From contig JAIBAH010000011.1 in the NCBI GenBank assembly GCA_019695295.1, positions 2,956-66,955 on the forward strand: DNA of 64,000 nucleotides. The letters run 5' to 3'. Below are positions 3,959 through 63,989 of the stretch, one piece after another (position 1 is the first letter of the stretch; every line of letters begins with the position of its first letter). This DNA comes from Bacteroidia bacterium. GTDB lineage: Bacteria > Bacteroidota > Bacteroidia > J057. Position numbers and translations under genes: made by a program. The notes beneath the pieces are model-generated. The model made no database searches, had not been told where the DNA came from, and was given only the letters and a program-made list of their open reading frames with translations.

Positions 3959-5851
3959 ATGAAGAGAATTTTATCAGTTTTGTTGTTGATGTGTTCTTTT
4001 AGCGCATTTGCACAGAATATCCCTCAGGATACCCCTGATGATTTTGGATATGTCTGGAGAAATAATACAAATGCCAATGGCCCTACTTACGACTGGGTGG
4101 ATATCACCGCAGTAGGAACAGAGGTAAGCGGACTTGCAGACGACAATTTTGTCGGCCCGGTTGATATGGGAATGACCTTCAAGTTTTACTGGAATACTTT
4201 TGATAAGATTTATATTGGCTCCAACGGTTATATTGCTTTTTCCGGAGTGAATATTGCTTCCCAGACTAACGGATTTCCTACCTGCCCTACCTCTGACAAT
4301 AACGATGGTATTATTGCAGGAATGTTATGTGACCTTGCTTTCGGATATGCTGGCTCAGTAGCCCGTTGCTTTACCTATCACGATGTGACCAATAACCGTT
4401 TTATTGTGACTTTTGATAAAGTACCATTCTGGACAAATAATGCTCAGAATTATGACGGGGAAAATACTTTCCAGTTTATTCTTGATGCAGATGACAACTC
4501 TATCACCATCAATTATGCAGATCAGCAAGGCGTATGGAACTCAGGATATGACGGAGTAGCCAATCCTTTGGTAGTAGGTATTGAAAATGCAACTGGTGCT
4601 TACGGATTGAATGTCTCTAATAACGTATATCCAGACTCCGCTTCTTCTATCCGTGTTTATTATCCTACCGTTCCTTTGATTGATGTAACGGATGCAGGTC
4701 CTGCTTCTGTTCAGAATCCTAAAAATGGGGGATTTTTTGCTAAGCCCGGCGTTCCAATCGCTTTGGGAACAGAAATTTCCAATAGTGGTAATGTAGATAT
4801 CCCCGGCCAGATTCTTGTAAATGCAAGTGTGAAAGATGAGGCTAACCTTAGCGTATATAGCGGTTCAAGCGTTATTACCGGCCTGACCTCCAATTCAGTA
4901 CAACCAGTATTTTTCGCACCTGACTTTACGCCATCCGCTGCAGGCTCATACAAATTTGAAGTAACCTCCAACGTATTGCCTTCCGGTGATATGAACTCAG
5001 CAAATGACAAAAAAGAAGTGGAACTCGTAGCAATTGACACAACCGCTGCGGGAGAGGAAATTTATAGTTATGTAACTTACAATAACCCTAACTCAGGCGT
5101 TTCATGGTCAGGTGGTTCCGGAAACAGCGGAGGCGGTATTTATATCAAGCCTTATGCTTATCCTACTATCATCAAAGCAATTGAAATCCTGGTATTGCCT
5201 ACTCAGGGAAATGCAACGTATGACCCACCTTCCGGTGCAATGGTTTATCACCTCGATGTATATGCAGATGACGGCCCCAATGGTTCTGTAGGTCAGCCTT
5301 TGGCTAATATGGATATTGACGGTGCTACAGTAGATATGTCTAACGCCACAAATGGTCTGGTATGGAATCGTCATGATATTCCGGATCCTATCATCGTAAC
5401 TCAGGGCGGTGTATATGTAGGCTGGATTCAGAATGATGACAAAGTAGTGCTCGCGGCTGAAGACACATTCCTTATCTCCAGAAGAACATACGAAATTCTG
5501 AATAATGCATGGGCTCCTTACAGAGACCTGGAAAACACAGATTTCTATATCCGTATTGTTACTGAAAAAACCACCAGTACTGCAATAACTCCCGGTAGCG
5601 GAATCAATACGCTTTCTGTATTCCCGAATCCTTCTACAGGAGCATTTACTGTAAATGCAGCTTTTGCACAGTCTTCTGACGCAATGATTAAGGTATCAGA
5701 CATGACCGGCAGAAAAGTACATTTCGAAGTGCTGAATCAGGTAAGTGAGATTAACCGCTCACTAAACCTTAGTCATCTTACCAAAGGAGTATATATCCTT
5801 GAAGTATCGAATGATAAAGGCAAGGCCACTGAAAAAATCATTATTGAATAA
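3959..5851 (+). CDS. secreted protein with a T9SS type-A C-terminal sorting domain; function unknown
   Basis: It has a signal peptide (MKRILSVLLLMCSFSAFAQ). The C-terminus (LSVFPNPSTGAFTVNAAF...GVYILEVSNDKGKATEKIIIE) is a typical Por secretion tail. Confidence 0.75.
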   Translation: MKRILSVLLLMCSFSAFAQNIPQDTPDDFGYVWRNNTNANGPTYDWVDITAVGTEVSGLADDNFVGPVDMGMTFKFYWNTFDKIYIGSNGYIAFSGVNIASQTNGFPTCPTSDNNDGIIAGMLCDLAFGYAGSVARCFTYHDVTNNRFIVTFDKVPFWTNNAQNYDGENTFQFILDADDNSITINYADQQGVWNSGYDGVANPLVVGIENATGAYGLNVSNNVYPDSASSIRVYYPTVPLIDVTDAGPASVQNPKNGGFFAKPGVPIALGTEISNSGNVDIPGQILVNASVKDEANLSVYSGSSVITGLTSNSVQPVFFAPDFTPSAAGSYKFEVTSNVLPSGDMNSANDKKEVELVAIDTTAAGEEIYSYVTYNNPNSGVSWSGGSGNSGGGIYIKPYAYPTIIKAIEILVLPTQGNATYDPPSGAMVYHLDVYADDGPNGSVGQPLANMDIDGATVDMSNATNGLVWNRHDIPDPIIVTQGGVYVGWIQNDDKVVLAAEDTFLISRRTYEILNNAWAPYRDLENTDFYIRIVTEKTTSTAITPGSGINTLSVFPNPSTGAFTVNAAFAQSSDAMIKVSDMTGRKVHFEVLNQVSEINRSLNLSHLTKGVYILEVSNDKGKATEKIIIE

Positions 5852-5874
5852 TATCAATATCAGTGAATATAAAA

Positions 5875-5908
5875 AAGAGGAGTATCGTCCTGATGCTCCT
5901 CTTTTTTT
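5875..5908 (+). terminator. rho-independent terminator
   Basis: An 8-bp stem aagaggag/ctcctctt is followed by a T-run, 24 nt after the stop at 5851. Confidence 0.6.
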
Positions 5909-6197
5909 ATTTTTATAGACAAAGACTGTATAGAAAAACGATGCTCTTTTACTGAAAGTCCGGATATTAATGGCTCTTTGGGCTTTTAAATCTCCTTTAA
6001 TGAAACAAAAGTATAATTTATCCGTAAGGAATAAGTGGGAGAAGTTTAATTTTTATTAAATTGCGAAACTTTTTCTTAAAAATGGCTTATTTTGTATTTA
6101 TAGTATAATTTTTGATAGATAAATATAGTTGAATATAAGGTTCTGAATTTACTTATCTTATCTTTTTATTTTTAAATGAAATTAATTTTCTTAAATC

Positions 6198-8255
6198 ATG
6201 AAATCAATTCGTAAGTTATTATTTCTATTGCTGGCGGGAAGTTTGTCTGGTTTGTTTGCCCAAAACCTGGTGAATATTAAACTGGGAGGCGAACAAAGAG
6301 ACGTAGCAAGAGGAGCGGTTCAGACTCCCCTCGGTGATTATGTAGTAGCCGGATACAGTTTCTCCAATCCTAACGGAGGAGGTAAGGCTGACATTGTAGT
6401 AACCCGGGTTGATAAAAATGGAAAAAAAGTCTGGGAAAATTATTTTGGCGGAAGAAATCATGATATGGCAAGTGATATCATCATGGCAAAAGACGGAAAG
6501 TTTGTCATTGCCGGGTTTACTTCTGAATCCTCCTCCGACAATAAAACGGTCTCCACAAAAGGATGGATTATTTGTCTTAATCCAAAAGGACAAATCGAAT
6601 GGCAATATACTTCCTACGGTGACAAAGCCGAAAGGGTAAACAGCGTAGCCCAGGCAGCCGACGGTGGCTTCTACTTTTCGGGTCTTACACAAAGCCGTAC
6701 CAAAGGAAAAGAAGATATGTGGGTGGGAAAACTCGACCAAACCGGAAAACTCAGATGGGAAAAAAGGTTTGGGGGTGCACTGGAAGATAAAGGAAACGGA
6801 GTGAGTGCTTCCAAATACGGAGGATGTATCGCTGTAGGTTCTACCAAATCCGAAGGAGCCGGAGAATCTGATATGATGGTAGCAAGAATAGGGGAAGACG
6901 GTACTATGCTTTGGTATAAGGTTATGGGAGGAATTGATAAGGATGAAGCCATGTCTGTAGCAGAAACGCCGGACGGAAAAATTGTTGTGAGTGGATGGAC
7001 AAACTCCAAAGGGTTTGGGAAATCGGACGCTGAACTGATTTTCATGAATAAAGATGGCTCCGTTGTCTGGGATAAAACCTTTGGGAAAGCAGGAAATGAC
7101 GCGTTTTCTTCTGTAATCAACACTCCTGACGGAAACCTGATTATGAGTGGATATACAACTCCGCTTTCCGCAAGCGAAAGTAATCTCTGGGTTGTAAAAA
7201 CGGACCATAAAGGAAATGTTTTCTGGGATAAATCCAGCTCAAGTGATAAAGAAGAATTTGCTTATTCGATTCAGCCTCTGAGAGAAGGCGGTTATTTACT
7301 GTCCGGTTTTACCAATAATGAAACTGCCGGCGAATCCGATATGTGGCTGATTACCATGAGCAATCTGGGAGTTTACAAAGCAAATGTACCCTCCATTGAT
7401 ATTGCCCATAATAATAAACCCGGCAAACCTCAGACTCAGCCACAGCCTCCCAAAAAGGAAAACAAACCTACCAAACCTTCTGAAATGGAAAACTGGATGA
7501 AACCCAATCTTTATATTTTAGCCGTTGGAGTTTCTGAGTACAGCGACAGTAAGTATAACCTTACCTTTGCACATACAGACGCAGATTCTGTTGCAGATAT
7601 GTTTGCTACCATGAAAGGGAAACTTTTTAATAAAGTAGAAGTAAAAAAACTCCTGAATAAAGACGCAACCCTCGTCAATATCAAAACCGCAATTACCTGG
7701 TTAGAAGAACAAACAACTCAAAAAGACCTGATTGTGATGTTTTTCTCCTCTCATGGAGCTTTGGACAATAAAGGTAATCTTTATATTCTTCCTTATGACT
7801 TCAACGCTATCAGCTTATTTGCTACTGCACTGAATATCAAGGATATTACCAATGGAATCAACGGTACCCCCTGTAAAAAAATGATATTCATGGATGCTTG
7901 TCACAGTGGAGAAGCAGGACTGGACTTATTAGAGTTCGCTTCTGTAAAAGACGCAAGCATGGATGGAATTGTAAAAGAAATCGCAGAAGCAGAGCCCGGT
8001 ATCACAATTATGACTTCTTCTACCGGTAAAGAATATTCCTATGAGAAAAACTCCTGGGGACACGGTGCTTTTACCAAGGCAATCCTCGAAGGCTTAAACG
8101 GAAAAGCGGATTTCAATAAAGATAAAGTGATTTACTTCACTGAACTGAATCTTTATGTGGCAGACAGAGTAAAAGAACTTACCGGAGGAAAACAACATCC
8201 TTATACTCCGATTAATCTTTTCGGAAATATACCGATTTTCACCCTCAAGCCATGA
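6198..8255 (+). CDS. exported beta-propeller-like repeat protein fused to a caspase-family (peptidase C14) domain
   Basis: It has a signal peptide (…SLSGLFAQ) and about seven ~50-aa repeats of the form (GG..D.A.SV..T.DG..V.AG.T.S...G..D.WV.K.D..G...W.K). A Pro/Lys linker (KPGKPQTQPQPPKKENKPTKP) follows. The C14 core carries FFSSHG (His codon 7752-7754) and MDACHSGEAG (Cys codon 7899-7901). Confidence 0.8.
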   Translation: MKSIRKLLFLLLAGSLSGLFAQNLVNIKLGGEQRDVARGAVQTPLGDYVVAGYSFSNPNGGGKADIVVTRVDKNGKKVWENYFGGRNHDMASDIIMAKDGKFVIAGFTSESSSDNKTVSTKGWIICLNPKGQIEWQYTSYGDKAERVNSVAQAADGGFYFSGLTQSRTKGKEDMWVGKLDQTGKLRWEKRFGGALEDKGNGVSASKYGGCIAVGSTKSEGAGESDMMVARIGEDGTMLWYKVMGGIDKDEAMSVAETPDGKIVVSGWTNSKGFGKSDAELIFMNKDGSVVWDKTFGKAGNDAFSSVINTPDGNLIMSGYTTPLSASESNLWVVKTDHKGNVFWDKSSSSDKEEFAYSIQPLREGGYLLSGFTNNETAGESDMWLITMSNLGVYKANVPSIDIAHNNKPGKPQTQPQPPKKENKPTKPSEMENWMKPNLYILAVGVSEYSDSKYNLTFAHTDADSVADMFATMKGKLFNKVEVKKLLNKDATLVNIKTAITWLEEQTTQKDLIVMFFSSHGALDNKGNLYILPYDFNAISLFATALNIKDITNGINGTPCKKMIFMDACHSGEAGLDLLEFASVKDASMDGIVKEIAEAEPGITIMTSSTGKEYSYEKNSWGHGAFTKAILEGLNGKADFNKDKVIYFTELNLYVADRVKELTGGKQHPYTPINLFGNIPIFTLKP

Positions 8256-8320
8256 AAACCCGGTGCGCTTAGGCGATCTTTAAGAAAGTATAGTAAAGGA
8301 AAAATATAATCATCCTGAGA

Positions 8321-8357
8321 AACATTCCGGAAATCAACCTCCGGAATGTTTTTTTTG
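8321..8357 (+). terminator. rho-independent terminator after the caspase gene
   Basis: A perfect 10-bp stem aacattccgg/ccggaatgtt with a 10-nt loop is followed by T7. Confidence 0.7.
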
Positions 8358-8407
8358 TAAGACTACTTTTTTTCTTAGTTTTGTACTTCTTAAATAAAAC
8401 CGGACGA

Positions 8408-9892
8408 ATGCACCATTTTTTTGCCGTATTAAAAAACAAATCACTGGTTTTACTCATCATTGGAATGCTGAGTTTGGTCATGCATTTCAGAATATTTTCG
8501 CTGGACCTGATTGGAATCCATGTTTGGAGACAGACTCAGACCCAGACCACTATACGCAATTTTTATACTGAGGACTTTCATATTCTGAATCCAAAAGTAA
8601 ATGAAAAAGCCGATACCGACAGAATATTCAGAATGGAATTTCCGGTTATGCAATGGGTTTTTGCAGGTTTTTACAAACTTTTGGGGACAGAAAGTATCAC
8701 CCTAAGCAGAATTCTTACCTTTATTATCGGGCTTTTCAGTATTGCGGGTATTTATACGCTGCTTGAAACTTTATTCCGAAGCCGGGAAACTGCCGGTGCT
8801 GGTGCGTGGGCATTCTCTTTCTCTCCTGTTTTCTACTATTATACCGTAAACCCGCTGCCGGATAATCTGGCTTTATGTATGGGAATATGGAGTTTATCCT
8901 GTTTTCTCCGGTGGTCTCATCAGTCACGCCAACGCGATTTGATTCTCAGCATTATTTTCCTGAGTATTGCCACACTTGCCAAATTACCCTTTATCATTTA
9001 CGGAGGAGTTGTAGCAGGTCATTTTCTGTCTAAATTTTATAAAGAAAAAAAAACGGATTTCCGGAGGTTTTTTACCACTTTGGGGTTATACATTCTTCTG
9101 CTTCTGCCTGCGATACTCTGGTATGCAGTTGTCATTCCGCAATGGCAAAACGGAGTAATCAAGGGGATTGCGGATTCCCATGAAAGTTATACCGTGCTGT
9201 TGGATATCCTCTGGACAAATCTCATATCTGTATTACCGGAGTTGCTGCTGAATTATGCTTCGGTTCCTTTTTTTGTGATTGCTGTTTATCAATTGTTTTC
9301 CCAAAAAAAATACCTGCACAATGATTTTCCTGCACTTGGTGCCGGGCTTCTGCTTGTGGTAGCCTACTTTCTGTATGAATTGAATATGATAGCAAAAGTA
9401 CATGATTATTATCTGTTTCCTTTTCTACCGTTCCTGTTTATACTGGTGAGTTCAGGCATTCAGTCATTGTTGAAACATCCGGCTTCCGGTGCCCGGCATT
9501 TTGCATTATTTGCCCTGTTCCTCCTTCCTTTCACTGCTTATCTGAGAATCAACAGCCGGTGGAATGAACAAAAGCCGGGCTTTAACCCGGTGTATTACAC
9601 CCACAAAACAGAACTGCGCAAACTGATAAAACCGGATGAGCTTTGCGTTGCAGGAAAAGATGTATCTCACTATATTCTACTCTATTATTTAGACCGCAAA
9701 GGATGGGTTTTTGAAGAAGACACGCTGAGAGCTGCTTTTTTACAGGAAAAAATTCATCAGGGTGCCAAATATCTGTTTACGGATGTAGTTTCGGAAAATA
9801 CCCCTGAGATGAATCTGCTTCTGAGTGAAAAAATCTATGAGAATGAAACGCTTAAGGTTTACCGTTTAAAAGACAAGGCAATTTCGCCCTGA
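8408..9892 (+). CDS. polytopic membrane glycosyltransferase, GT39/ArnT-like (PMT_2-type)
   Basis: It has about 11-12 hydrophobic segments, with an N-terminal loop region and overall layout like ArnT or dolichyl-phosphate-mannose protein mannosyltransferase-like enzymes. The track start at 8381 is a TTG; the ATG at 8408 (MHHFFAVLKNK) is preferred. The family call rests on architecture only. Confidence 0.55.
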   Translation: MHHFFAVLKNKSLVLLIIGMLSLVMHFRIFSLDLIGIHVWRQTQTQTTIRNFYTEDFHILNPKVNEKADTDRIFRMEFPVMQWVFAGFYKLLGTESITLSRILTFIIGLFSIAGIYTLLETLFRSRETAGAGAWAFSFSPVFYYYTVNPLPDNLALCMGIWSLSCFLRWSHQSRQRDLILSIIFLSIATLAKLPFIIYGGVVAGHFLSKFYKEKKTDFRRFFTTLGLYILLLLPAILWYAVVIPQWQNGVIKGIADSHESYTVLLDILWTNLISVLPELLLNYASVPFFVIAVYQLFSQKKYLHNDFPALGAGLLLVVAYFLYELNMIAKVHDYYLFPFLPFLFILVSSGIQSLLKHPASGARHFALFALFLLPFTAYLRINSRWNEQKPGFNPVYYTHKTELRKLIKPDELCVAGKDVSHYILLYYLDRKGWVFEEDTLRAAFLQEKIHQGAKYLFTDVVSENTPEMNLLLSEKIYENETLKVYRLKDKAISP

Positions 9893-58895: not shown

Positions 58896-60134
58896 ATGTC
58901 CTTAAAAACTCAGACAGACCAGTTTCTTTACAGGCGTTTTAGTGCGGATGACCCGGAGAAATTAAAAGAACTTGAAACCCTCGCTCAAAAAGAGGGGGTA
59001 AATATATTGCAGTATGAATCCTTGCTCAGAAGCGGGTACAGTAATTTTCCGGATGTCAATCCGCTCAGAGGAAAAATCTCCCGTTTGTCTTTTACGTGCG
59101 ACTACACCGGGCTGAAAATTCCCTATTATCTCTATGTCCCACCGGGATATTCTCCAGGGAACCCGTCTCCCCTCACCCTGATTGCACATGGGGGGAATAA
59201 TGCCATGTCTCCCGACGAAGCCCTGGATACAGCGCTGGACTATATCCGGGCATACTCTCCTATCGGAGTAAATGGTAATCATATTCTGGCAGCACCGGCA
59301 AGTTCCAGGGGATGGGGTTCAGTTGGGGTAGGAAATCTCTTTTCCCTCCGCTCATTACTCACCCGAACCTTTCATATTCATCCTGACAAAATCCACATTA
59401 CGGGTCAATCGATGGGTGGACATCTTGCCTATCGTATGGCGCTTTGGTTCTCTGACCGTTTTGGGGCAATTTCACCACACAGCGGAGGGTATGATTATGT
59501 ATCTCAGGATATTATCGTGAATCTGCTGGATTCCAAAGCCTATTCTGTATTCGGTGAATATGAGCCTTACGGAATCAACGAAGCCAATAAAATCAATGAG
59601 CAATGGCTGAAAAAACAGCAGACAAACTGGGTTTTTGTAGAGAAAAAAGGCGGAGGACACAGCATTTATCCGGATGAGATGAACAACATCATCCGGTTTT
59701 TCAATCAGTATCCCCGAAATCTCTATCCTCCAAAAGTAAGGATGAAAATCAGGGGAAGCATGATTTTTGAAGGAGAAAGTCACCCAAACTGGGGCAATGA
59801 AATGATTAAACCCATTCAGGGCCGAACCTTCTCTTCCCGCTCCCGTTACTGGCTCAGAATCATGAAAGGCATAGACATGAATCAGTATATGGAATTATCC
59901 GGTGAAATCCGGAACGGAAATATTATCTCTGTTCAGCAAAAAAATGTTTCGGAATTTGAGTTGTGGTTACACCCGAAAATGGTAGACTGGAGTCAAAAAG
60001 TAAAAGTAATCCTTAACGGAAAAACCATTTACGAGGAACTTCCCTCCGAAAATCTCAAAGAGATGCTCACACATGTCAAAGAATATGACGACAGGGGGCG
60101 GATATTCTATCAAAAACTGGTTTTTAATGCATGA
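58896..60134 (+). CDS. alpha/beta hydrolase (esterase/peptidase-like)
   Basis: It has the nucleophile elbow ITGQSMGGH, an oxyanion-type IAHGGNN and a candidate catalytic His in GGGHSIYPDE. There is no signal peptide. It starts 14 nt after the vWA stop. Confidence 0.7.
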   Translation: MSLKTQTDQFLYRRFSADDPEKLKELETLAQKEGVNILQYESLLRSGYSNFPDVNPLRGKISRLSFTCDYTGLKIPYYLYVPPGYSPGNPSPLTLIAHGGNNAMSPDEALDTALDYIRAYSPIGVNGNHILAAPASSRGWGSVGVGNLFSLRSLLTRTFHIHPDKIHITGQSMGGHLAYRMALWFSDRFGAISPHSGGYDYVSQDIIVNLLDSKAYSVFGEYEPYGINEANKINEQWLKKQQTNWVFVEKKGGGHSIYPDEMNNIIRFFNQYPRNLYPPKVRMKIRGSMIFEGESHPNWGNEMIKPIQGRTFSSRSRYWLRIMKGIDMNQYMELSGEIRNGNIISVQQKNVSEFELWLHPKMVDWSQKVKVILNGKTIYEELPSENLKEMLTHVKEYDDRGRIFYQKLVFNA

Positions 60135-62476
60135 TTCAGGTTTTTACCACTTTTTATAATAAAAAAGAGATGATTCAATATTTCTCCCAAAGTTGTCTGT
60201 TGATTGTCTTTTATCTGCTTTCGTTTTTGCCGGTTTACAGTCAGCCCGGGATTATGACGATGAAAGAAACAGGAACTGGTCCTTCTTCTGCTTTATATAG
60301 CCTTATAGCCTCCTCTGACAATCATTTTTACTGTGCCGGATACATTACAGATTCCACGCCTTCTCAAACGAATGGACATCTGATAAAACTGAATGAAAAA
60401 GGCGAAATTCTTTGGGAGAAAATCCTTGACAAAGGCCATAATGAAAAGGTAATTTCGATTTTTTCCGATAATCAGGGGGGCGTTTTTTCCCTTATGTCCC
60501 ATTCTCCAGATTCCCTTTCGCCCTGGAAAAACCGGAAAACCTTTCTGATTCATTTTGACGAAAACGGGAATCTTCTTTCCGAAATGGCGCAGGAGAAAGA
60601 AAATGCACTTTTTCCGCCGGTTCAGCAATTGTCCGGAGGCGATTTTTTATCTCTGGTGTATCATAAAAATGCTGCGGATTCTGCCGCAAACCCGGTTCCC
60701 GGACTAGTGAAACTGAATGCAAAGGGAGAAATTCTCTGGAAGAAAAGCTATCTGCCGGATTCCGGAATTGTCAGTGAAGCAACTTTCATGCGCTTACCCA
60801 ATGAGGAAATTCTGTTTATCATGGCAGTGAGTTTTCCGCCGGATAGTATGGATTTCTCAAAGTACTGGAAATGGAATCAGGAAGGAATTTACCTGATCCG
60901 GTGTAAAAATGACGGGACTGAAATCAGCCGGAAATATCTTCCGCCATTCTCAAAAGTCTATATTATCCAACCCACAAAAGACGGGAATTTTATAGCGGCA
61001 GGAAGTAAAAATGTGGATGAAGACTCTGATACAGAGATTGATATTTTCATCCGGAAAATCGCCATTTCAGGGGAAACGATATGGGAAAAACAAATTCATG
61101 TACAAAAATATGACTCTCCTATGGAAATTTCAGAGTTATCCTCCGGCAATATTATACTTTCCGCTTATTGTGGAGGCAGCTGGGTGACAGCCTCTGCGCA
61201 CACCGCTTTGTTTGAATTGAGCGGAAAGGGAGAAACTCTTTGGAGCAAAGTTTTCCGTGACGGAAATTGTATCAATCAACTCGTTCAGAAAAAGGACAGT
61301 ACTTACTTTGGAGTGGGTTTATTTTCTGAAACTTATGTACAGAAAGAGGATGATTCCTATTCTTTTTCCCATGATAAATCCTTCGAAAGCAAATCCCGTT
61401 TGTATCATCTCAGCAGCAATCAGGTATTATGGCAGAAACATCTTTCCACTTTCAATAGTTCGGAGCAGGCTTATTGTATCGAAAAAAGCAAAGACAACGG
61501 ATTTTACCTTTCCGGGATAGACTTTAACGGAAACCATATTTTCATCCGGAAGATAGACGAAAACGGGAATACGTTATGGGTCAACAGTATGGGCACATGG
61601 AGTGCTTCGATGGAAGTACCTTCAGGCGTCACAGAACTGGCTGAAGGTGGCTGCATTGCTTTCAATAATAAAGATGATTTGTATCGTTTTTCTGAATCCG
61701 GAGAAATGCTCTGGAAAAACAAAAACCTTGACTTTAAGCATATTTCCGGAATTAAACCCCATAAGAAAAACACTTTTTTTGTAGCGGGTTCGGTTTGGTT
61801 GAATTACCCGGAAAATAATTTATGGTGGGGAATTACAGGAGAAGACGGCAACCTCATTTCAGAGAAAGAAAAACACTTTTCCTTGCCGGTAAAGGTCTGG
61901 GATATAGAAAAATGCAGGGATGAAGGATTTCTTCTGGGATGTGAAGCAGGCGAGCCGGGAGAAAATATCATTCAGCTTGTGAAAATTGACAAGGAGGGGG
62001 AATACGAATGGAATGAGCTTTACCCGATGGGAAAATCCTCTGAAGCCCGAAGCGTAGCCGAGTTAAAATCAGGAGGGTACGCAATTGGAGGGATTTCCTA
62101 TAATCCGCAGGAGAAATACCGGGCGGTTTTGATAAAAACGGACTCCAAAGGAAAGAAAGAATGGGATTTAAAACTGGTGAAAACAGAGAGCGAATTATTT
62201 ACGAGCGTAATCACCGTTGATACCGCAGGCTATATTTTGCTTGCAGCAACCCATAAGTTCAATAGCTATAAAGGAGAACAGGAAATTTATGTCACAAAAA
62301 TATCAGAAAAGGGAGAAATTATCTGGGAAAAATTCCTCTGTGGCGCAGGGTCTCATCAGGTGGGTGGGATTGCCCTTACGCATGACAATCATATTCTGAT
62401 TACGGGCTATTCCAGTTATCATCAAACCCATAAAAGCGAACCGGAAATTTTGCTGGTGAAGGTAAAAAATGACTGA
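60131..62476 (+). CDS. exported repeat protein (about 13-14 beta-propeller-like blades), paralogue of the caspase N-domain
   Basis: G(E/K).(L/I)W.K-type repeats recur every ~50-55 aa. The ATG at 60131 overlaps the hydrolase stop (ATGA). The signal-like segment starts at the second Met (ATG 60170: MIQYFSQSCLLIVFYLLSFLPVYSQ), so 60170 is an alternative start. Confidence 0.65.
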   Translation: MIQVFTTFYNKKEMIQYFSQSCLLIVFYLLSFLPVYSQPGIMTMKETGTGPSSALYSLIASSDNHFYCAGYITDSTPSQTNGHLIKLNEKGEILWEKILDKGHNEKVISIFSDNQGGVFSLMSHSPDSLSPWKNRKTFLIHFDENGNLLSEMAQEKENALFPPVQQLSGGDFLSLVYHKNAADSAANPVPGLVKLNAKGEILWKKSYLPDSGIVSEATFMRLPNEEILFIMAVSFPPDSMDFSKYWKWNQEGIYLIRCKNDGTEISRKYLPPFSKVYIIQPTKDGNFIAAGSKNVDEDSDTEIDIFIRKIAISGETIWEKQIHVQKYDSPMEISELSSGNIILSAYCGGSWVTASAHTALFELSGKGETLWSKVFRDGNCINQLVQKKDSTYFGVGLFSETYVQKEDDSYSFSHDKSFESKSRLYHLSSNQVLWQKHLSTFNSSEQAYCIEKSKDNGFYLSGIDFNGNHIFIRKIDENGNTLWVNSMGTWSASMEVPSGVTELAEGGCIAFNNKDDLYRFSESGEMLWKNKNLDFKHISGIKPHKKNTFFVAGSVWLNYPENNLWWGITGEDGNLISEKEKHFSLPVKVWDIEKCRDEGFLLGCEAGEPGENIIQLVKIDKEGEYEWNELYPMGKSSEARSVAELKSGGYAIGGISYNPQEKYRAVLIKTDSKGKKEWDLKLVKTESELFTSVITVDTAGYILLAATHKFNSYKGEQEIYVTKISEKGEIIWEKFLCGAGSHQVGGIALTHDNHILITGYSSYHQTHKSEPEILLVKVKND

Positions 62477-62564: not shown

Positions 62565-63989
62565 TTGGTTTTTAGCAGTATCATATTTTTACTTTATTTC
62601 TTACCGCTTTTTTTGTGGGTATATCTGCTTGTACCCAAATCCCTGAAAAATGCCGTTATCCTTATAGGAAGTTGTCTGTTTTATGCCTGGGAGTCCCCTC
62701 AGTTTGTGTTCGTAATCCTTACCACAACGTGGTTAGATTATCATTTTGTACGTCAAATGGACAAAGTAGAAAGCCCCTTTCTGAGAAAAATCTGGCTGGT
62801 TTTTTCTTTAAGCCTGAACCTTGGGTTATTATTTTATTTTAAATATTGTAATTTTTTTGTAGAAAATCTCAGCGAAATGCTTTCGGAAGGCTCCGGAACA
62901 GTAACTCCCTGGATAAAACTTGCGCTTCCCATAGGCATTTCATTCTATACCTTTGAAAGCATTACTTATGTAGTGGATGTTTACAGAAAAATCCATAAAC
63001 CGCTTCGGAATTTCTGGTTGTATCAGGTTTATATCATGCTATTTCCCAAACTAATAGCAGGCCCGGTGATCCGTTATCATGAGATATCAGAACAGTTGAC
63101 TAACAGAATCGAAACCGCTGAGCTAAGACTTTATGGCTTGTACCGTTTTATCATCGGACTTTCCAAAAAAGTATGGATTGCCAATACAATGGCGGGGTAT
63201 GCGGCGGATATTTATAGTCATTCTCCTGATAAAATCAGTACTTTGGGAGCGTGGACTGGCGCACTCGCTTATACGTTTCAAATTTATTTTGATTTTTCGG
63301 GTTATTCAGATATGGCAATTGGGATTGGAAAGATGATGGGATTTCGTTTTCCCGAAAATTTCAATAATCCCTATTCTTCCCTGAGTATTACCGAGTTTTG
63401 GAAACGGTGGCACATCACACTCGGAGCGTGGATGCGCAATTATTTATATATCCCTCTAGGGGGAAATCAAGTAACCCCTCCTTACCGCATTTATGTGAAT
63501 CTTATGGTGGTCTTTTTGATATCCGGATTCTGGCATGGAGCGGAATGGGCATTTGTCTTTTGGGGGCTGTATCATGGATTTTTTCTGATTGTGGAAAGGC
63601 TTTTTTTGCTGAAAATTCTCCAAAATTTACCAAAATTCGTGGGATTATTCTATGCTTTTTTGGTTGTAGTGATAGGCTTAGTATTTTTCAATCTGGAGGA
63701 AATTCCCAAAAGCATAGCATTTCTCAAAATAATGTTTGGGGAGGGCAAGCCTGATGCCTATCAATCCACAATGGATTTTATGTTCTTATTTTATTTCACT
63801 CTTGCCTTTCTATTCAGTTTTTGGATACTCCTTCCAAAAGGAAAAGCAATTCAGGAAGTCGTTTTTTCAGAAAAATACGGGTTTAAAGAACACGTTTTTG
63901 CATCCTTTCTCAGTTTTATTTTTTTAATCCTTTGCGCAGCCAAAATTACCGGCTCTGATTTTAATCCATTTATTTATTTCCGTTTCTGA
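62565..63989 (+). CDS. MBOAT-family membrane O-acyltransferase (AlgI/DltB-like)
   Basis: It is polytopic, with FDFSGYSDMAIG, FWKRWHITLGAWMRNY and the catalytic-His region FLISGFWHGAEW. The start codon appears to be TTG, with no in-frame ATG near the conserved MVFSS N-terminus. Confidence 0.9.
   Translation: MVFSSIIFLLYFLPLFLWVYLLVPKSLKNAVILIGSCLFYAWESPQFVFVILTTTWLDYHFVRQMDKVESPFLRKIWLVFSLSLNLGLLFYFKYCNFFVENLSEMLSEGSGTVTPWIKLALPIGISFYTFESITYVVDVYRKIHKPLRNFWLYQVYIMLFPKLIAGPVIRYHEISEQLTNRIETAELRLYGLYRFIIGLSKKVWIANTMAGYAADIYSHSPDKISTLGAWTGALAYTFQIYFDFSGYSDMAIGIGKMMGFRFPENFNNPYSSLSITEFWKRWHITLGAWMRNYLYIPLGGNQVTPPYRIYVNLMVVFLISGFWHGAEWAFVFWGLYHGFFLIVERLFLLKILQNLPKFVGLFYAFLVVVIGLVFFNLEEIPKSIAFLKIMFGEGKPDAYQSTMDFMFLFYFTLAFLFSFWILLPKGKAIQEVVFSEKYGFKEHVFASFLSFIFLILCAAKITGSDFNPFIYFRF

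Follow-up and report, generated by a model that had tools for sequence, protein, structure and literature searches.

The gene at positions 6198 to 8255 of a 64,000-bp stretch of the genome of a Bacteroidia bacterium (GenBank assembly GCA_019695295.1, contig JAIBAH010000011.1, positions 2,956 to 66,955; the whole stretch is referred to below as the window) encodes a 685-aa protein in which a signal peptide and a seven-bladed β-propeller precede a caspase-type cysteine protease domain of family C14. Bacterial caspase homologues are nearly always discussed as cytoplasmic effectors of cell death or defence. The protein described here is likely to be an exported, active envelope protease that cleaves after Arg or Lys, though our confidence in any particular physiological role is much lower.

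According to the proposed mechanism, signal peptidase I would remove residues 1–21 and expose Gln22, and the propeller, which belongs to the SBBP type, would dock on or recruit a protein or another envelope partner. Some 40 flexible residues would connect the propeller to the C14 domain, in which His519 and Cys568 would carry out catalysis and a pocket including Asp461 and Asp566 would direct cutting after Arg or Lys. In the manner of other C14 enzymes, the protein would be activated through autoprocessing, either in the loop that contains Lys584 or in the Lys-rich linker. The protein would then serve as a lineage-specific processing or quality-control protease of the envelope and not as a mobile cell-death or defence effector. 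Coordinates of the gene, its domains and the predicted functional residues are given in Table 1.

Table 1. Features of the propeller-caspase gene, its flanking regions and the operon that neighbours it in related genomes. Positions are those of the window unless a locus is named.
Feature	Position	Strand	Details
Propeller-caspase coding sequence, complete	6198..8255	+	685 aa; uninterrupted open reading frame
Layout of the product	6198..8255	+	Signal peptide 1–21, SBBP propeller 22–392, linker 393–434, C14 domain 435–685
Sec/signal peptidase I-type signal peptide, residues 1–21	6198..6260	+	Predicted cleavage LFA|Q, Gln22 at +1
Seven-bladed SBBP/delta-60/CylK-type β-propeller, residues 22–392	6261..7373	+	From AF2 model, Foldseek, phmmer and Pfam
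Disordered Pro/Lys-rich linker, residues 393–434	7374..7499	+	pLDDT <50 at 396–431; length and sequence vary
Peptidase_C14 domain (metacaspase/orthocaspase-like), residues 435–685	7500..8252	+	Includes p10-like part and tail QHPxTPINLFGNIP
Asp461, predicted S1-pocket acid in helix α1	7578..7580	+	Equivalent of TbMCA2 Asp95; D of C-x-N-D in AtMC4/Yca1
Catalytic His519 (FFSSHG), predicted	7752..7754	+	Codon CAT; invariant; aligns to His of metacaspase YSGHG
Asp566, predicted S1-pocket acid, two residues before Cys568	7893..7895	+	Equivalent of TbMCA2 Asp211; invariant
Catalytic Cys568 (DACHSG), predicted	7899..7901	+	Codon TGT; invariant; aligns to metacaspase DSCHSG
Lys584, candidate autoprocessing site in disordered loop after Cys568	7947..7949	+	Invariant in 30 homologues
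AT-rich intergenic/promoter region	5852..6197	+	346 bp, 24.6% GC
Intrinsic terminator of the preceding T9SS-cargo gene	5871..5907	+	17-pair stem, 3-nt loop, T-run; from consensus scan
Intrinsic terminator 3' of the caspase gene	~8317..8357	+	15-bp stem, 8-nt loop, U-run
Partner operon, source genome	G000:C93, locus L012 1214–1426 and 1489–2964		Also L006 6221–7887 and L009 4094–5767

The C14 domain and its predicted active site

In the Pfam search, residues 441–669 matched the Peptidase_C14 model PF00656 with an E value of 8.9e-21 and a score of 75.1 bits, as compared with a cut-off of 21.4, and the alignment covered profile positions 5 to 222 of 233. Thirty full-length homologues sharing 38–96% identity with the 685-aa protein were available for comparison. 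Down to 38% identity, none of the 30 shows a substitution at His519 and Cys568, which align with the catalytic dyad of the metacaspases, at the Gly following this His, or at Asp461 and Asp566. Asp566 is invariant also in the 13-sequence set A2 described below. In the metacaspase TbMCA2, the acidic residues Asp95 and Asp211 accommodate the basic P1 side chain of the substrate (PMC4357240, PMC6426788). The presence of equivalent acidic S1 residues, together with the invariant dyad, leads to the prediction of an active enzyme with cleavage after Arg or Lys.

Mean pairwise identity amounts to 70% in the caspase domain, 39.5% in the propeller and 17.7% in the linker; hence, the catalytic half is under strong constraint. 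A structural model was built with AlphaFold2 (AF2) on the 30 homologues, and its local confidence is given below as the predicted local distance difference test score (pLDDT). Loop 570–592, which follows Cys568, was modelled with pLDDT <50, and at the position of Lys584 the relatives with WD40 propellers (see below) show GKRR. The loop after the catalytic Cys is the usual place of autoprocessing in C14 enzymes. By analogy with these, the protein probably undergoes autoprocessing, the loop with Lys584 and the Lys-rich linker being the candidate sites.

Sequence similarity to the metacaspases was remote. A profile of 13 caspase-domain sequences (A2), searched against the sequences of the Protein Data Bank (PDB), matched the metacaspases AtMC4 of Arabidopsis (6w8s), Yca1 of yeast (4f6o) and TbMCA2 of T. 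brucei (4af8) with E values of 1e-5 to 2e-4, and it also matched the bacterial protein GSU0716 (3bij). A phmmer search of the PDB sequences with the caspase domain alone returned nothing significant, a match to DptH at E 1.1 being at chance level. In Foldseek, the caspase part of the model matched GSU0716 (3bij), the paracaspase MALT1 (3v4o; target-normalised TM score of 0.72) and, from Candida, a metacaspase (7qp0), at E values of ~1e-7.

The caspase/hemoglobinase fold, as predicted by the model, the SHG and D-x-CHSG motifs, the two acidic S1 residues and the p10-like C-terminal part are common to the domain and to the metacaspases and orthocaspases of MEROPS subfamily C14B (AtMC4, 6W8S; Yca1, 4F6O; TbMCA2, 4AF8; and Microcystis MaOC1). 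However, the characterised members of that group are cytoplasmic (cytosolic in eukaryotes), lack a signal peptide, and none has an N-terminal SBBP propeller. GSU0716 of Geobacter sulfurreducens is likewise a bacterial C14 protein and is among the best solved matches of the catalytic half by both fold and profile, but it is a structural-genomics protein of unknown function that consists of a single domain and has no propeller.

Signal peptide and predicted location

The N-terminus, which reads MKSIRK, LLFLLLAGSLSGLF and A|QN, includes a basic n-region, a 14-residue hydrophobic core, Ala at position −1 and Gln at position +1. This is the layout of a Sec-type signal peptide, as judged by a rule-based reading of the n-, h- and c-regions. 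The hydrophobic core and an [A/S]-Q pair at the aligned cleavage site are present in all 30 full-length homologues, and the basic n-region in 29 of the 30. Gln at +1 is the 'Q-rule' mark of signal peptidase I substrates in Bacteroidetes (PMC5837995).

Residues 1–40 include no Cys, i.e. there is no lipobox as expected for a lipoprotein cleaved by signal peptidase II, and no second hydrophobic segment occurs anywhere in the 685-aa protein. Nor does the protein have a C-terminal sorting domain of the type IX secretion system (T9SS), whether PF18962/TIGR04183 or type B, although the same Pfam and NCBIfam searches detected one in the product of the adjoining gene at 3959–5851. The conserved C-terminal tail of the protein is instead a part of the caspase fold. 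Since lipobox, second membrane segment and T9SS sorting domain are all absent, a soluble protein residing in the periplasm or envelope is the most likely case.

These data bear on the possibility of a secreted or surface protease with a nutritional or adhesive role that would degrade external proteins in the manner of the gingipains. Arg/Lys-specific proteases of clan CD are indeed exported in Bacteroidota (PMC4357240), SBBP-type propellers are common in T9SS cargo, with many matches bearing a Por_Secre_tail, and the gene adjoins a T9SS cargo gene in the window. We nevertheless regard such a role as very unlikely, as the protein carries neither a type A or B T9SS C-terminal domain (CTD) nor a lipobox and ends with the conserved caspase fold, the T9SS neighbour is conserved within the source genus only, and no similarity to Peptidase_C25 was found in the Pfam search of the protein. 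The gingipains of Porphyromonas (family C25, clan CD; PMC4357240) provide a functional analogy, being exported Arg/Lys-specific cysteine proteases of Bacteroidota that conform to the Q-rule. They differ from the present protein in family, in their secretion by the T9SS via a CTD, which is missing here, and in the possession of a pro-domain and adhesin domains.

The propeller and the linker

In the AF2 model, residues 26–387 form 28 strands that are arranged as seven blades of four strands each with a period of 51–56 residues, and the pLDDT of this part is mostly >90. CylK was the top match among solved structures (7fh6; E 1.3e-28 in Foldseek and 1.4e-14 in phmmer). The C-terminal propeller of CylK (7FH6/7RON) belongs to the same seven-bladed repeat class; however, CylK itself catalyses Friedel-Crafts alkylation in cyanobacteria and carries a Ca-binding domain at its N-terminus, and no catalytic equivalence is implied. 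The cut-offs of two Pfam models were passed, namely PF17164 (DUF5122; 28.5 versus 27) and PF13360 (PQQ_2; 30.6 versus 27.6), and the NCBIfam model TIGR02608 (delta-60 repeat) scored 64.6, under its cut-off of 76.5. The SBBP/delta-60 repeat class is very common in exported proteins of Bacteroidota, and most matches of the protein search bear a T9SS tail.

The invariant residues of the propeller are the structural Gly, Trp and Asp of each blade. This pattern, together with the fast divergence of the propeller relative to the protease domain, speaks for a scaffold used in docking and makes a conserved pocket for a small ligand less likely. As judged from these sequence comparisons, the propeller is probably a module for docking or recruitment of a protein or envelope partner. 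In the first-pass annotation of the window, made from the sequence alone, the propeller had been regarded as a probable ligand-binding sensor and the protein as a case of regulated extracytoplasmic proteolysis. The C14 domain, the dyad, the signal peptide and the propeller make an extracytoplasmic protease the best reading, and that part of the proposal is retained; the sensor role finds no support.

The linker is rich in Pro and Lys, with 8 Pro and 7 Lys counted by eye among the 39 residues 396–434, and is disordered in the model. The same annotation had also described the cleavable-looking signal peptide, the propeller of about seven repeats, the Pro/Lys-rich linker, the C-terminal C14 domain with the positions of its His and Cys codons, and the recurrence of the repeat type without a protease at 60131–62476, all of which agree with the present results. 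The last of these regions encodes a 781-aa protein with repeats of this class, which BLASTP aligned in several registers with those of the propeller-caspase (E 5e-13); the two proteins also give weak matches to one and the same NCBIfam SBBP model.

The 781-aa product of 60131–62476 (+) is a double SBBP propeller with a signal peptide and no protease domain. Its gene is overlapped by 4 nt by an α/β-hydrolase gene (58896–60134, +) and is followed by an MBOAT acyltransferase gene (62565–63989).

Distribution and inheritance of the fusion

The full-length fusion of the SBBP propeller with the caspase domain was found in 46 of the 51 species of the source GTDB family, in none of 26 species from the ten remaining families of its order, and in none of 392 other genomes of a class-wide sample, in which only two candidates were scored per genome. 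It is single-copy in every genome bearing it, and its identity to the window protein declines in parallel with the identity of a core gene unrelated to it. All named records of the fusion come from metagenome-assembled genomes of uncultured 'Bacteroidia/Bacteroidota bacterium'. The fusion is thus vertically inherited and near-universal in one uncultured family of Bacteroidia.

Genes near the caspase gene in the window encode an aminotransferase, an E2 acyltransferase, a glycosyltransferase and NadB. As the gene is single-copy, vertically inherited, near-universal in one family and located among housekeeping genes, we assign it a lineage-specific housekeeping role. A near-core, vertical and constrained gene outside defence islands is more readily explained as a protease for routine tasks of the envelope than as an effector in conflicts.

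The latter possibility would imply an envelope effector of suicide, defence or fratricide. Its propeller would detect, in the periplasm, a phage, a foreign cell or damage to peptidoglycan, and its caspase domain would then attack envelope proteins, thereby killing the cell or its neighbour. Caspase-like proteases of bacteria are often conflict effectors, and a surface role in cell death or fratricide was proposed for extracellular forms in a 2012 survey (PMC3501461). The protein scored 74.8 bits on the NCBIfam model NF047832 (caspase, EACC1-associated type) and 26.9 bits on the generic 'caspase' model of PADLOC, the only PADLOC model to match; both scores are far under the family thresholds (140 in the case of NF047832), and the neighbouring genes gave no PADLOC match. 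No EACC1 or NTPase domain was found in the protein or its neighbours with Pfam, NCBIfam and PADLOC, and no sigma/anti-sigma pair or other defence partner is located nearby. Furthermore, defence genes are typically patchy and fast-evolving, whereas the present gene is single-copy, near-universal and vertical, lies in a housekeeping neighbourhood and has a highly conserved catalytic domain. An effector function is hence considered unlikely.

DdvA of Myxococcus xanthus, a periplasmic TPR-CHAT anti-sigma factor, controls a defence island (PMC11506125) and in this respect is in line with an effector. It is the nearest characterised case of a caspase-fold domain placed in the periplasm. However, the domain of DdvA is of the CHAT (C50-like) type and not C14, its dyad is incomplete, and the protein is membrane-anchored and coupled to a sigma factor of the extracytoplasmic function (ECF) group. 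No DdvA-like sigma/anti-sigma arrangement is present near the gene described here.

Related exported caspases

When the caspase domain alone was searched against 1.84 billion cluster representatives, 37,105 of them matched at E ≤ 1e-3. The number at E ≤ 1e-30 was 1,298, which gives the minimum size of the subfamily to which the domain belongs; exported WD40-caspases of ~950–1,000 aa from many phyla make up most of it. Among the best 150 representatives, about three were of the SBBP type with 676–685 aa, and most were proteins of 920–1,060 aa with a C-terminal caspase. The exported examples of the WD40-caspase type have a signal peptide or membrane anchor, WD40 propellers, a C-terminal caspase and the same motifs. 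Of 58 loci of this type in species-representative genomes, 43 encode a signal-peptide-like N-terminus, and relatives of the type span Planctomycetota, Desulfobacterota, Verrucomicrobiota, Campylobacterota, Saprospiraceae and others.

The uncharacterised exported caspases with WD40 and Ig-like modules (~950–1,000 aa; e.g. P0041 and P0053) are the closest relatives of the catalytic domain, with 35–46% identity. They show the same order of signal peptide, propeller(s) and caspase, and the motifs KPNLYILAVGVS, DACHSG and WGHGAFT and the C-terminal tail are common to both groups. In contrast to the single SBBP propeller of the present protein, which is confined to one family, they have two WD40 propellers with Ig-like modules and occur in many phyla.

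Five C14 genes are present in the source genome. Two of them, the nearest paralogues of the propeller-caspase gene, encode proteins of 348 and 374 aa (locus L004 on G000:C10 and locus L005 on G000:C199) that consist of a signal peptide, LysM and a C14 domain with both His and Cys present. LysM is a peptidoglycan-binding module. The LysM-caspase of G000:C199 is the closest paralogue of the caspase domain in this genome and has the P-INxFGN tail in common with it. Two other C14 proteins of the source genome are seemingly cytoplasmic (L001 on G000:C61 and L002 on G000:C113). In this group, one gene is an open frame of ~1,144 aa for a multidomain protein with the caspase near the C-terminus, and the other product, of 695 aa, has the caspase at the very N-terminus.

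SBBP propellers were also found joined to C14 domains via extra Ig-like modules in two other Bacteroidota proteins, P0046 (Saprospiraceae, 990 aa) and P0035 (736 aa), and the caspase of P0035 belongs to a different subfamily. In view of these two proteins, the combination of propeller and caspase seems to have arisen more than once.

The 2012 survey mentioned above (Asplund-Samuelsson et al., PMC3501461) had described an N-terminal helix, which may be a signal peptide, in many caspase homologues of prokaryotes, along with extracellular or peptidoglycan-binding partner domains, with WD40 as the commonest partner. No study characterising an exported C14 enzyme was found in the open-access literature. 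Export of a caspase had been taken as exceptional in the annotation, a view that does not hold in the light of the WD40-caspases of many phyla, the two LysM-caspases of the source genome and the survey. The SBBP-propeller caspase is a lineage-restricted variant, with SBBP replacing WD40, within a very large uncharacterised group of exported C14 proteins. The detail of the SBBP-propeller version is new; the class of exported caspases as such is widespread and was already visible in sequence surveys.

Taken alone, therefore, the protein is one more member of a widespread architecture class and is unsurprising once its relatives are seen. The question of what caspases do in the envelope extends to thousands of WD40- and LysM-linked relatives, and a 685-aa protein with two domains that is intact, strongly conserved and near-universal in its lineage would be a convenient model for envelope proteases of the caspase type.

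A divergent operon next to the fusion gene

In 15 of 22 related loci, the fusion gene is divergent from an operon, referred to here as the partner operon, that encodes a protein of ~65–70 aa with two hydrophobic helices (2-TM protein) and a propeller protein of ~490 aa with a signal peptide. Fusion gene and operon are located on the same contig in 34 of 47 fusion genomes, where they are always head-to-head and 334–916 bp apart, and most of the other genomes are broken assemblies. No other neighbour recurs in more than four of the 22 loci, which speaks against any conserved context on the 3' side of the gene; a neighbour encoding a metallo-β-lactamase (MBL) hydrolase recurs in L007 and L011 only. 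Neither the ~490-aa protein nor the 2-TM protein gave a match with Pfam or NCBIfam. The model of the ~490-aa protein is an all-β propeller (pLDDT 86, predicted TM score 0.79) that retrieved only generic propellers in Foldseek. In the ancestral state, the fusion gene would have been divergent from this operon, whose products are perhaps a partner of the protease or a co-regulated machinery.

Ten genomes without the fusion, from the other families of the order, had no other caspase beside the partner operon. In one such family (genome G003), however, the same-strand gene that directly precedes the partner encodes an SBBP-propeller–OmpA protein. This gene (L096 1508–3508, −) lies 3 bp upstream of the ~490-aa protein gene and its product has 666 aa, a signal peptide, an SBBP propeller and a C-terminal OmpA-like peptidoglycan-binding domain. 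The propeller of L096 is colinear with that of the window protein (E 4e-31). This suggests a possible joint action of the partner and SBBP-propeller proteins at the cell wall, a lead that comes from a single lineage and from a class of proteins that is abundant.

In the source genus, the T9SS cargo gene at 3959–5851 holds the position that is usually taken by the partner operon, and a homologue in L013 is arranged alike.

Several findings count against an active envelope protease that is linked with the partner operon. The operon is core to the whole order, being present in 76 of 78 genomes irrespective of the caspase, and in the source genus it is unlinked from the fusion gene, the copy of the source genome being located on G000:C93. 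Because of this, the adjacency of fusion and partner may be inherited synteny and not a sign of function. Inspection by eye revealed no shared motif in 14 divergent intergenic regions, the region upstream of the gene in the window and that preceding the unlinked partner. Confidence in the AF2 model is only moderate for its caspase part (pLDDT 56–88). Furthermore, the N-terminus could be an uncleaved signal anchor, since the signal peptide was judged by rules, and a free active-site thiol would be a liability in the oxidising periplasm.

Alternatively, the protein could be a non-catalytic scaffold (pseudo-protease), or a binding protein kept at the inner membrane by an uncleaved N-terminal anchor. 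Some phyla are rich in pseudo-orthocaspases (PMC6426788), and loops of low confidence occur in the caspase half of the model. In pseudo-variants, however, the dyad is replaced, whereas here every homologue retains the dyad, the Gly next to His519 and the two Asp residues of the S1 pocket, and the short h-region with A|Q behind it is what a cleaved substrate of signal peptidase I would show. Both forms of this explanation are accordingly regarded as highly improbable, and an active, exported protease is preferred.

A more general proposal, which is speculative and rather doubtful, is that the SBBP-, WD40- and LysM-caspases make up an unrecognised but widespread class of periplasmic caspase-type proteases in diderms. 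These would see to everyday tasks in the envelope, e.g. protein maturation, quality control or remodelling associated with peptidoglycan, and not to cell death. In the order studied, the protease would act with the core pair of the 2-TM protein and the ~490-aa propeller, to which SBBP propellers with different C-terminal heads (a caspase in one family, an OmpA-like domain in another) would have been linked repeatedly.

Transcription of the gene and adjoining genes

The caspase gene is preceded by a 346-bp spacer and has an intrinsic terminator on either side (Table 1); therefore, it is very probably transcribed alone, as its own transcription unit, which is in agreement with the single-gene transcription suggested in the first-pass annotation. 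The upstream terminator, which belongs to the preceding T9SS-cargo gene, insulates the gene on its 5' side. The downstream terminator was missed by the consensus scan but was detected by reading of the sequence and confirmed by folding (−20.4 kcal/mol, z = −4.77). The exact Bacteroidota promoter box TAnnTTTG is absent from the 346-bp region, and a single sigma-70-like match at 6076–6104 is at chance level.

Two antisense open reading frames inside the gene (6225–7208 and 6671–7123, both on the minus strand) were disregarded, since the plus-strand frame is conserved in the 30 homologues.

The adjoining gene on the 5' side (3959–5851, +) encodes a 630-aa T9SS cargo protein of type A, which matched Por_Secre_tail with 60 bits and gave a weak nidogen-like match. 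Directly past the downstream terminator, the gene at 8381–9892 (+) encodes a polytopic PMT_2 (ArnT-like) glycosyltransferase, whose adjacency to the fusion is not kept in other genomes.

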